From Escherichia coli (GTDB taxonomy: Bacteria; Pseudomonadota; Gammaproteobacteria; Enterobacterales; Enterobacteriaceae): DNA of 334 nucleotides. A model generated the notes under the pieces. That model made no database searches, was not told the origin of the DNA, and worked only from the letters and a program-made list of their open reading frames with translations. The DNA lies in NCBI RefSeq assembly GCF_003334765.1, contig NZ_QOWT01000136.1; one strand, 5' to 3'. Below are positions 1 through 334 of this stretch, piece by piece; within the stretch, counting starts at the first letter, position 1, and each line of letters starts with the position of its first letter. Position numbers and translations under genes: made by a program.

Positions 1-334
1 AGCATTCTTTCCAGGTCGACGAGTCGGTCAGTCTGTTGCCCGGTGATAAGATGAAACCCCCACCGGTCCCACCTCACTAGGTTGTTGTTGACGATAATTT
101 TACTGCCAAATTTGCAGGGGCAATTGGTTTTGTAATTCCAGTTCAGTCCCCTGAAGACGTTGATCACCCCTCGCTCAAACACCTCATCCTTATTCTGGTG
201 TAGTTGTTCAAATGTGCTCAGAATGTTCGCTTCACTGATTTCCGGAAAATTATCGTGCTCCAGTGACCGGTACCATGTATCACGGGCCTGTGCATCCATT
301 AAGGAAAGCATCCCTGAACGTTGCATCAGGTCAC
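1..334 (-). CDS. Partial CDS (internal fragment, both ends outside the window or start unresolved), hypothetical protein of unknown function. In-frame codons occupy + coordinates 3-332. Translation (N->C): DLMQRSGMLSLMDAQARDTWYRSLEHDNFPEISEANILSTFEQLHQNKDEVFERGVINVFRGLNWNYKTNCPCKFGSKIIVNNNLVRWDRWGFHLITGQQTDRLVDLERM
   Basis: Seen in sequence: manual six-frame translation gives one frame on the reverse complement that is open for all 110 codons across the window. Both other minus-strand frames have stops within the first 60 nt, and + frames 1, 2 and 3 have stops at 52-54 and 133-135, 44-46, and 78-80 respectively. A 110-codon stop-free run at about 48% GC is unlikely by chance (rough estimate well under 1%). 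Codon choice and composition look like a real protein, with a mix of charged, aromatic and hydrophobic residues and no low-complexity runs apart from NNN. Product is unassigned: I see no catalytic motif I can name with confidence (no Walker A, no clear PD-(D/E)xK, no SAM-binding or DPPY-type methyltransferase motif in this fragment). Confidence 0.8.

Follow-up and report, generated by a model that had tools for sequence, protein, structure and literature searches.

A DUF4942 gene fragment of Escherichia coli, its genomic-island and plasmid relatives, and a possible role in early establishment

What kind of gene does a short, anonymous piece of Escherichia coli DNA represent when its only long reading frame is rich in rare arginine codons, and does such codon usage betray a foreign origin? 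The question is raised by a stretch of 334 nucleotides, hereafter called the window, which the original prediction described as a single unassigned reading frame, possibly belonging to a horizontally acquired gene. It was found that the window makes up the middle third of an already known and annotated, functionally uncharacterised DUF4942 gene, and that this gene is horizontally acquired and accessory, being the terminal gene of islands integrated at tRNA loci. The predicted minus-strand frame was confirmed, since it stays open over 110 codons and gives a translation of 110 residues (DLMQRSGMLS...LVDLERM), while the remaining two minus-strand frames are crowded with stops and the reading frames lying wholly within the window, in a six-frame listing, reach 20-25 aa at most. 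Neither a start nor a stop codon was found inside the minus-strand frame, and the window therefore lies in the interior of a longer gene. Neither of its strands showed promoter- or terminator-like sites, it contains no direct repeats, and its single inverted pair, of 11 nt with arms 144 nt apart, is probably a product of chance. Additionally, an Rfam scan of the window returned nothing above noise, its one snoRNA match remaining below threshold (E = 0.53). The GC content, given beforehand as about 48%, was measured at 48.2%.

The frame had been thought to belong to no recognisable family, which did not hold: the fragment matches the Pfam family DUF4942 (PF13708) with E = 1.5e-33, at model positions 11-117 of 190, and the best megablast matches to the window are all annotated 'DUF4942 domain-containing protein' in RefSeq, an annotation present in thousands of genomes. 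The domain is incomplete here, as both window ends fall inside it. In its full length, the 280-aa nearest relative matches the same family with E = 5.5e-66 (model 1-189, residues 87-275) and has no Pfam domain besides DUF4942. The translation of the window can be placed on residues 97-205 of WP_001280493.1, an E. coli protein of 280 aa, to which it adds a single Asn, and every base agrees with the best E. coli match save for a 3-bp insertion (BLAST value 99.1%). At positions 81-89 the window reads GTTGTTGTT, where relatives carry GTTGTT, and this is the sole difference to the locus L001. The insertion is in frame, with the result that the nearest E. coli gene, which encodes the same domain, has (AAC)2 on the coding strand whereas the window has (AAC)3, giving Asn-Asn-Asn in place of the Asn-Asn of all relatives examined. 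None of 5,426 complete E. coli genomes was found to contain the (GTT)3 variant, the 66 surrounding bases matching there at no more than 95.5%, and the third Asn codon is likewise lacking in 16 diverse homologues and in the genomes that represent species in GTDB. Because the extra residue would sit in a predicted turn (178-180) joining two beta-strands of the modelled protein, it is probably harmless.

As regards codon usage, the arginine count behind the suspicion of foreign origin was exactly reproduced, seven of the nine Arg codons being rare ones (CGG 2, CGA 2, AGG 2 and AGA 1) and the other two CGT. The comparison was made with genes of the genome carrying the nearest relative, including eight flanking core genes from melR to dcuS. 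In these core genes 29 of 143 Arg codons (20%) are rare, a rate from which the window departs with a binomial p = 3.4e-4, while for ten further genes of this island the corresponding figure is 62 of 123 (50%; window versus these, p = 0.09). The bias is also kept in other island copies of the gene, which have 11-15 rare codons among their 20-23 for Arg. On an index resembling the codon adaptation index (CAI) and built on 19 core genes, the window scored 0.611 against 0.713 +/- 0.054 for the core, of which the lowest gene reached 0.621. When Arg was left out, the values were 0.684 and 0.728 +/- 0.047, which places the window inside one standard deviation. The drop in the index thus largely vanishes without Arg, and the codon signal is therefore carried almost entirely by this amino acid.

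The other compositional arguments fared less well. Leucine usage is ordinary, with CTG making up 45% in the window versus 47% in core genes, so that the mixture of Leu codons, which had been read as a sign of an accessory gene, is normal; the correct counts are CTG 5, CTT 2, TTA 1, CTA 2 and CTC 1, instead of the four CTG and one CTT first reported. Similarly, GC had been taken as pointing to a foreign gene, but both GC (48% in the window, 51% in the host) and GC at third codon positions (GC3, 59% in both) match the host. The proposed comparison with the host genome thus gave a divided answer, since Arg codons and the CAI-like index deviate from the host, the latter being lower, whereas GC and GC3 do not. 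The rare-Arg signal is nevertheless real and typical of the island, and it reflects an origin in mobile elements. Within the same island, a 'RepB' gene (L001 20129-21148) was observed with a GC of 37% and 16 of 17 Arg codons rare; its composition is much more unusual than that of the DUF4942 gene, and it was probably acquired separately.

The distribution of the gene bears directly on its origin. By megablast, the window was found in 3,588 of the 5,426 complete E. coli genomes, and the whole DUF4942 gene is present in 4,068 of them (75%), at a median of two places (range 1-8), with insertion sites that differ between copies and include pheU, pheV, serX and others. Six E. coli loci were inspected, comprising the near-identical locus and five others. 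All six contain the same module of genes on one strand, which runs (DUF905, DUF932), antirestriction, JAB/RadC-like, DUF987, YeeU/CbeA antitoxin, CbtA toxin, DUF5983, DUF957 and DUF4942. In each of them DUF4942 is the last gene of the module, and core genes or a tRNA come next (cadC, yghD, tRNA-Ser). At three loci (L001 14648-14664, L010 8874-8890 and L013 8874-8890) the DUF4942 stop is followed, after 111 nt, by a partial repeat of the 3' end of tRNA-Phe, consisting of a 17-nt exact match, or of 22 nt (17+5) with one deletion, in pheU-side and pheV-side insertions alike. This is the expected attachment repeat, and the DUF4942 gene therefore stands right at the island's end. The complete pheV island spans about 43 kb and is made up of the tRNA-Phe, an integrase, Dpt/Dnd phosphorothioation defence cargo and the module ending in DUF4942. 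The same gene has been listed in the Shigella SRL island as orf56, equivalent to L0010 (PMC6980539).

The original prediction of a horizontally acquired accessory or island gene is thus borne out by the variable presence, copy number and site of the gene and by the tRNA-Phe and integrase that bound its islands. In fact, the integrase, tRNA site and toxin-antitoxin genes that it had suggested looking for in the flanks are all present at the loci of the relatives. For the window itself, we infer the same module and island position as at the near-identical locus. Among five island copies, with a DNA divergence of about 10%, the pairwise dN/dS was 0.08-0.18, which indicates that intact island copies are under purifying selection.

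Some further observations were made around these islands. The cargo of the pheV island is a complete DptFGH / DndBCDE phosphorothioation defence system (L019 23614-38466), and defence genes and putative counter-defence genes therein share one element. At L001 and L013, sequence resembling the integrase-proximal end of an island and then an integrase pseudogene come after the attachment repeat, and this suggests a remnant of a second, tandem island beside cadC. Additionally, a 3,236-bp record deposited as 'Escherichia phage ECO111 5-P' (OR844783.1, H57) has at its end the first 110 codons of a DUF4942 gene of the island type, at 92.7% identity; the record probably represents a piece of a chromosomal island and not a phage. 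The features of the window are collected in Table 1.

Table 1. Features located in the 334-nucleotide window, with coordinates counted from its first letter
Feature	Position	Strand	Basis
Internal fragment of a DUF4942-family gene	1..332	-	Open frame; PF13708 match; near-identical E. coli loci
Third Asn codon, (AAC)3 on the coding strand, (GTT)3 on the plus strand	81..89	-	Alignment to relatives
Span with nine Arg codons (fragment codons 5, 17, 22, 54, 61, 87, 90, 103 and 109)	6..320	-	Codon count

The gene also has relatives on plasmids. By tblastn, homologues were located in 4,352 of 72,556 plasmids, 3,997 of these carriers being conjugative, with 32-38% identity over 94-95% of the query and E values around 1e-42 to 1e-46. 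Samuel et al. 2024 (PMC11541004, supplementary file 3) reported two DUF4942 families enriched in the leading regions of plasmids, one of them (n = 2,171) with a median gene position of 1 from oriT and the other (n = 551) with position 6. These YdiA / YgfB-type proteins (families 24 and 76 of that study) contain the same domain over 95% of their length and, like the island protein, are standalone, with about 265-285 aa. The recurrent neighbours of their genes, as in the islands, are DUF905, antirestriction and JAB/RadC. On the other hand, they differ from the island protein in the sequence divergence given above, in being plasmid-borne and in the lack of an adjoining CbtA/CbeA module.

Individual plasmids illustrate this arrangement. 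In an IncI1 plasmid (L008) the order is ssb, DUF905, ParB, psiB, psiA, ArdA, further genes and DUF4942, and then nikA/oriT, while in an IncL plasmid the DUF4942 gene lies amid JAB, DUF1380, antirestriction and ssb. The leading region of a further plasmid (L007, 15235-16293) has DUF4942 after ArdA and forms a dense anti-defence island, which also encodes PsiB, PsiA, an AcrVA2-like protein and MqsR/MqsA. The island block (L010-L013) and the plasmid leading regions have DUF905, DUF932, antirestriction and JAB in common, in both cases co-oriented and with DUF4942 last; on plasmids this last gene adjoins oriT, and on chromosomes the end of the island. ArdA and KlcA/ArdB are neighbours of DUF4942 genes in islands and leading regions alike, and a common timing of expression may be presumed. 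As to likeness in sequence or structure, no Pfam, PADLOC, PDB or AFDB match beyond DUF4942 was obtained that would relate the protein to ArdA/KlcA or to another defence family.

The wider family was collected by an exhaustive HMMER search, which yielded 2,112 clusters (50% identity) at E <= 0.001, most of them standalone proteins of 255-300 aa. A few members of 460-545 aa, from phages and bacteria, combine an N-terminal DUF4942 with a C-terminal MTS-type S-adenosylmethionine (SAM) methyltransferase of about 190 aa, in which motif I takes the form VLEPSAGxG (LEPSAGxGGL) and motif IV the form NPPF/NPPY. Examples of such fusions are gp22 of Pseudomonas phage phiPSA1 (L002 2240-3871), P0188, P0201, P0216 and P0258, and they contain no further candidate targeting domain. 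The DUF4942 domain of the fusions (phiPSA1 gp22, phrog_6263) is common to the island protein, at 23-40% identity, whereas their C-terminal catalytic domain with motifs I and IV is wholly absent from it. The family is matched by phrog_6263, annotated 'DNA methyltransferase', as well as by phage genes annotated methyltransferase. However, the label 'DNA methyltransferase' is only putative for the fusions, because MTS-type domains also methylate rRNA and proteins.

Two other leads from this part of the family were set aside. An obligate pairing of DUF4942 with an adjacent methyltransferase gene was considered and dropped, since such pairs were seen in some contexts but not in the islands or in several others. 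The annotation of phage MR13 gp23c as 'Lar family restriction alleviation' was not used, because its counterpart in phiPSA1, gp22, which has the same length and locus position, gave no Lar match among the Pfam families found with an eight-protein alignment that included gp22. In several coliphages (vB_EcoP-683R2 and relatives, H76-H79), a short stretch is 51% identical to the DUF4942 protein at residues 76-151 only; two of the records call it 'hypothetical protein' only and three others also 'A-kinase anchor protein 5', and it may be an N-terminal sub-domain that has been truncated or repurposed.

With respect to structure, searches of NCBIfam, PADLOC and PDB (by sequence) with the full-length relative were all empty, and the best match of a PDB profile search (augmin, E = 0.57) was noise. 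According to a confident AlphaFold2 model, built on a 99-sequence alignment (pLDDT 88.8, pTM 0.80), the protein begins with a long helix, which is followed by a helical bundle and a C-terminal alpha/beta portion. It is mainly in this last portion that the conserved motifs are found, together with the invariant residues W95, D201, H254 and N267. The best 50 Foldseek matches in AFDB50 all bear family-type names (DUF4942, YdiA, Aec79, methylase/methyltransferase), and, going by these 50, the predicted fold appears to have no relative outside the family.

Different explanations of the gene have to be weighed against this evidence. It could be a native core gene with odd codon usage, or a functionless remnant in decay, and in fact GC and GC3 lie at the host average, partial copies and pseudogenised neighbours are numerous. 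Nevertheless, this view has next to no chance of being right, given that presence, copy number and location are all variable, that an att repeat, a tRNA and an integrase delimit the island, and that the low dN/dS speaks for the maintenance of intact copies. A second proposal, namely that the island protein is itself a DNA (restriction) methyltransferase, draws on the names given to it in some databases ('restriction methylase', 'restriction endonuclease subunit M', 'methyltransferase'), on the match to phrog_6263 and on the fused relatives, which do carry a methyltransferase domain. However, the 280-aa protein consists only of DUF4942 (87-275), and it showed neither catalytic nor SAM motifs (no [DNS]PP[YFW], GxGxG or ExSxGxG) nor a Pfam methyltransferase domain, while the catalytic part of the fusions is a separate C-terminal region that is missing here. 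Catalysis by the island protein is therefore extremely unlikely and, because it has no methyltransferase domain or motifs, the methylase-type names look transferred from the fusions.

The gene neighbourhood invites two more explanations. In every E. coli island inspected, the DUF4942 gene lies on the same strand as cbtA, two to three genes downstream of it, which would fit a role in the adjacent type IV toxin-antitoxin module CbtA/CbeA, either as its third component or as its regulator. This is nevertheless very unlikely, as homologues exist on plasmids and phages without CbtA/CbeA, the family of 2,112 clusters extends far past the enterobacterial loci that show the toxin-antitoxin pair, and the three CbtA-type pairs of K-12 are described as two-gene systems (PMC5371832). 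It might also be supposed that DUF4942 serves DNA transfer itself, through oriT/relaxosome processing or the priming of the incoming strand, instead of counter-defence. The gene is the nearest to oriT in plasmids and the terminal one in islands, and one family of such islands, the TAI islands of O157:H7, is reported to carry only an oriT and has been proposed to be mobilisable, probably by conjugation (preprint 10.64898/2026.01.13.699239). Against such a transfer role, phage copies, either standalone or fused to a methyltransferase, have no conjugation context, leading-region genes act in the recipient and not in transfer, and no oriT was located beside the island copy, the island end not having been tested for one; a function in transfer is thus considered unlikely.

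What emerges is that the island DUF4942 protein is a conserved, selected and non-catalytic protein of mobile elements. In the literature, the family was met in annotation-table mentions only, and no experiment on any member was found. It is conceivable that the standalone protein acts soon after a new host has been entered, as an accessory factor in establishment or against defences, and that it would do so by binding the partner served by the domain in the fusions, which may be DNA or a restriction-modification component, without methylating it. Such an early role through partner binding is offered as a tentative suggestion, possible rather than probable. With similar reserve, standalone DUF4942 proteins might form an unrecognised establishment/anti-restriction class with an orphan fold, that is, a methyltransferase-targeting module devoid of the catalytic domain, and the block from antirestriction to DUF4942 at the pheU, pheV and serX islands might be a chromosomal 'leading region'. 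A role as target-recognition domain is kept as one option only, because the motifs of the domain are unusually conserved.

The interest of these results rests with the DUF4942 family as a whole rather than with this annotated fragment. DUF4942 genes are among the commonest uncharacterised genes of enterobacterial islands and of the leading regions of conjugative plasmids. If the block at the island end is indeed a 'leading region', conjugative mobilisation would be the way in which the islands reach new hosts, the DUF4942 end leading. In plasmids, the DUF4942 gene is often the first to enter the recipient and, if its function is to overcome recipient defences, it would bear on the spread of resistance plasmids and pathogenicity islands.
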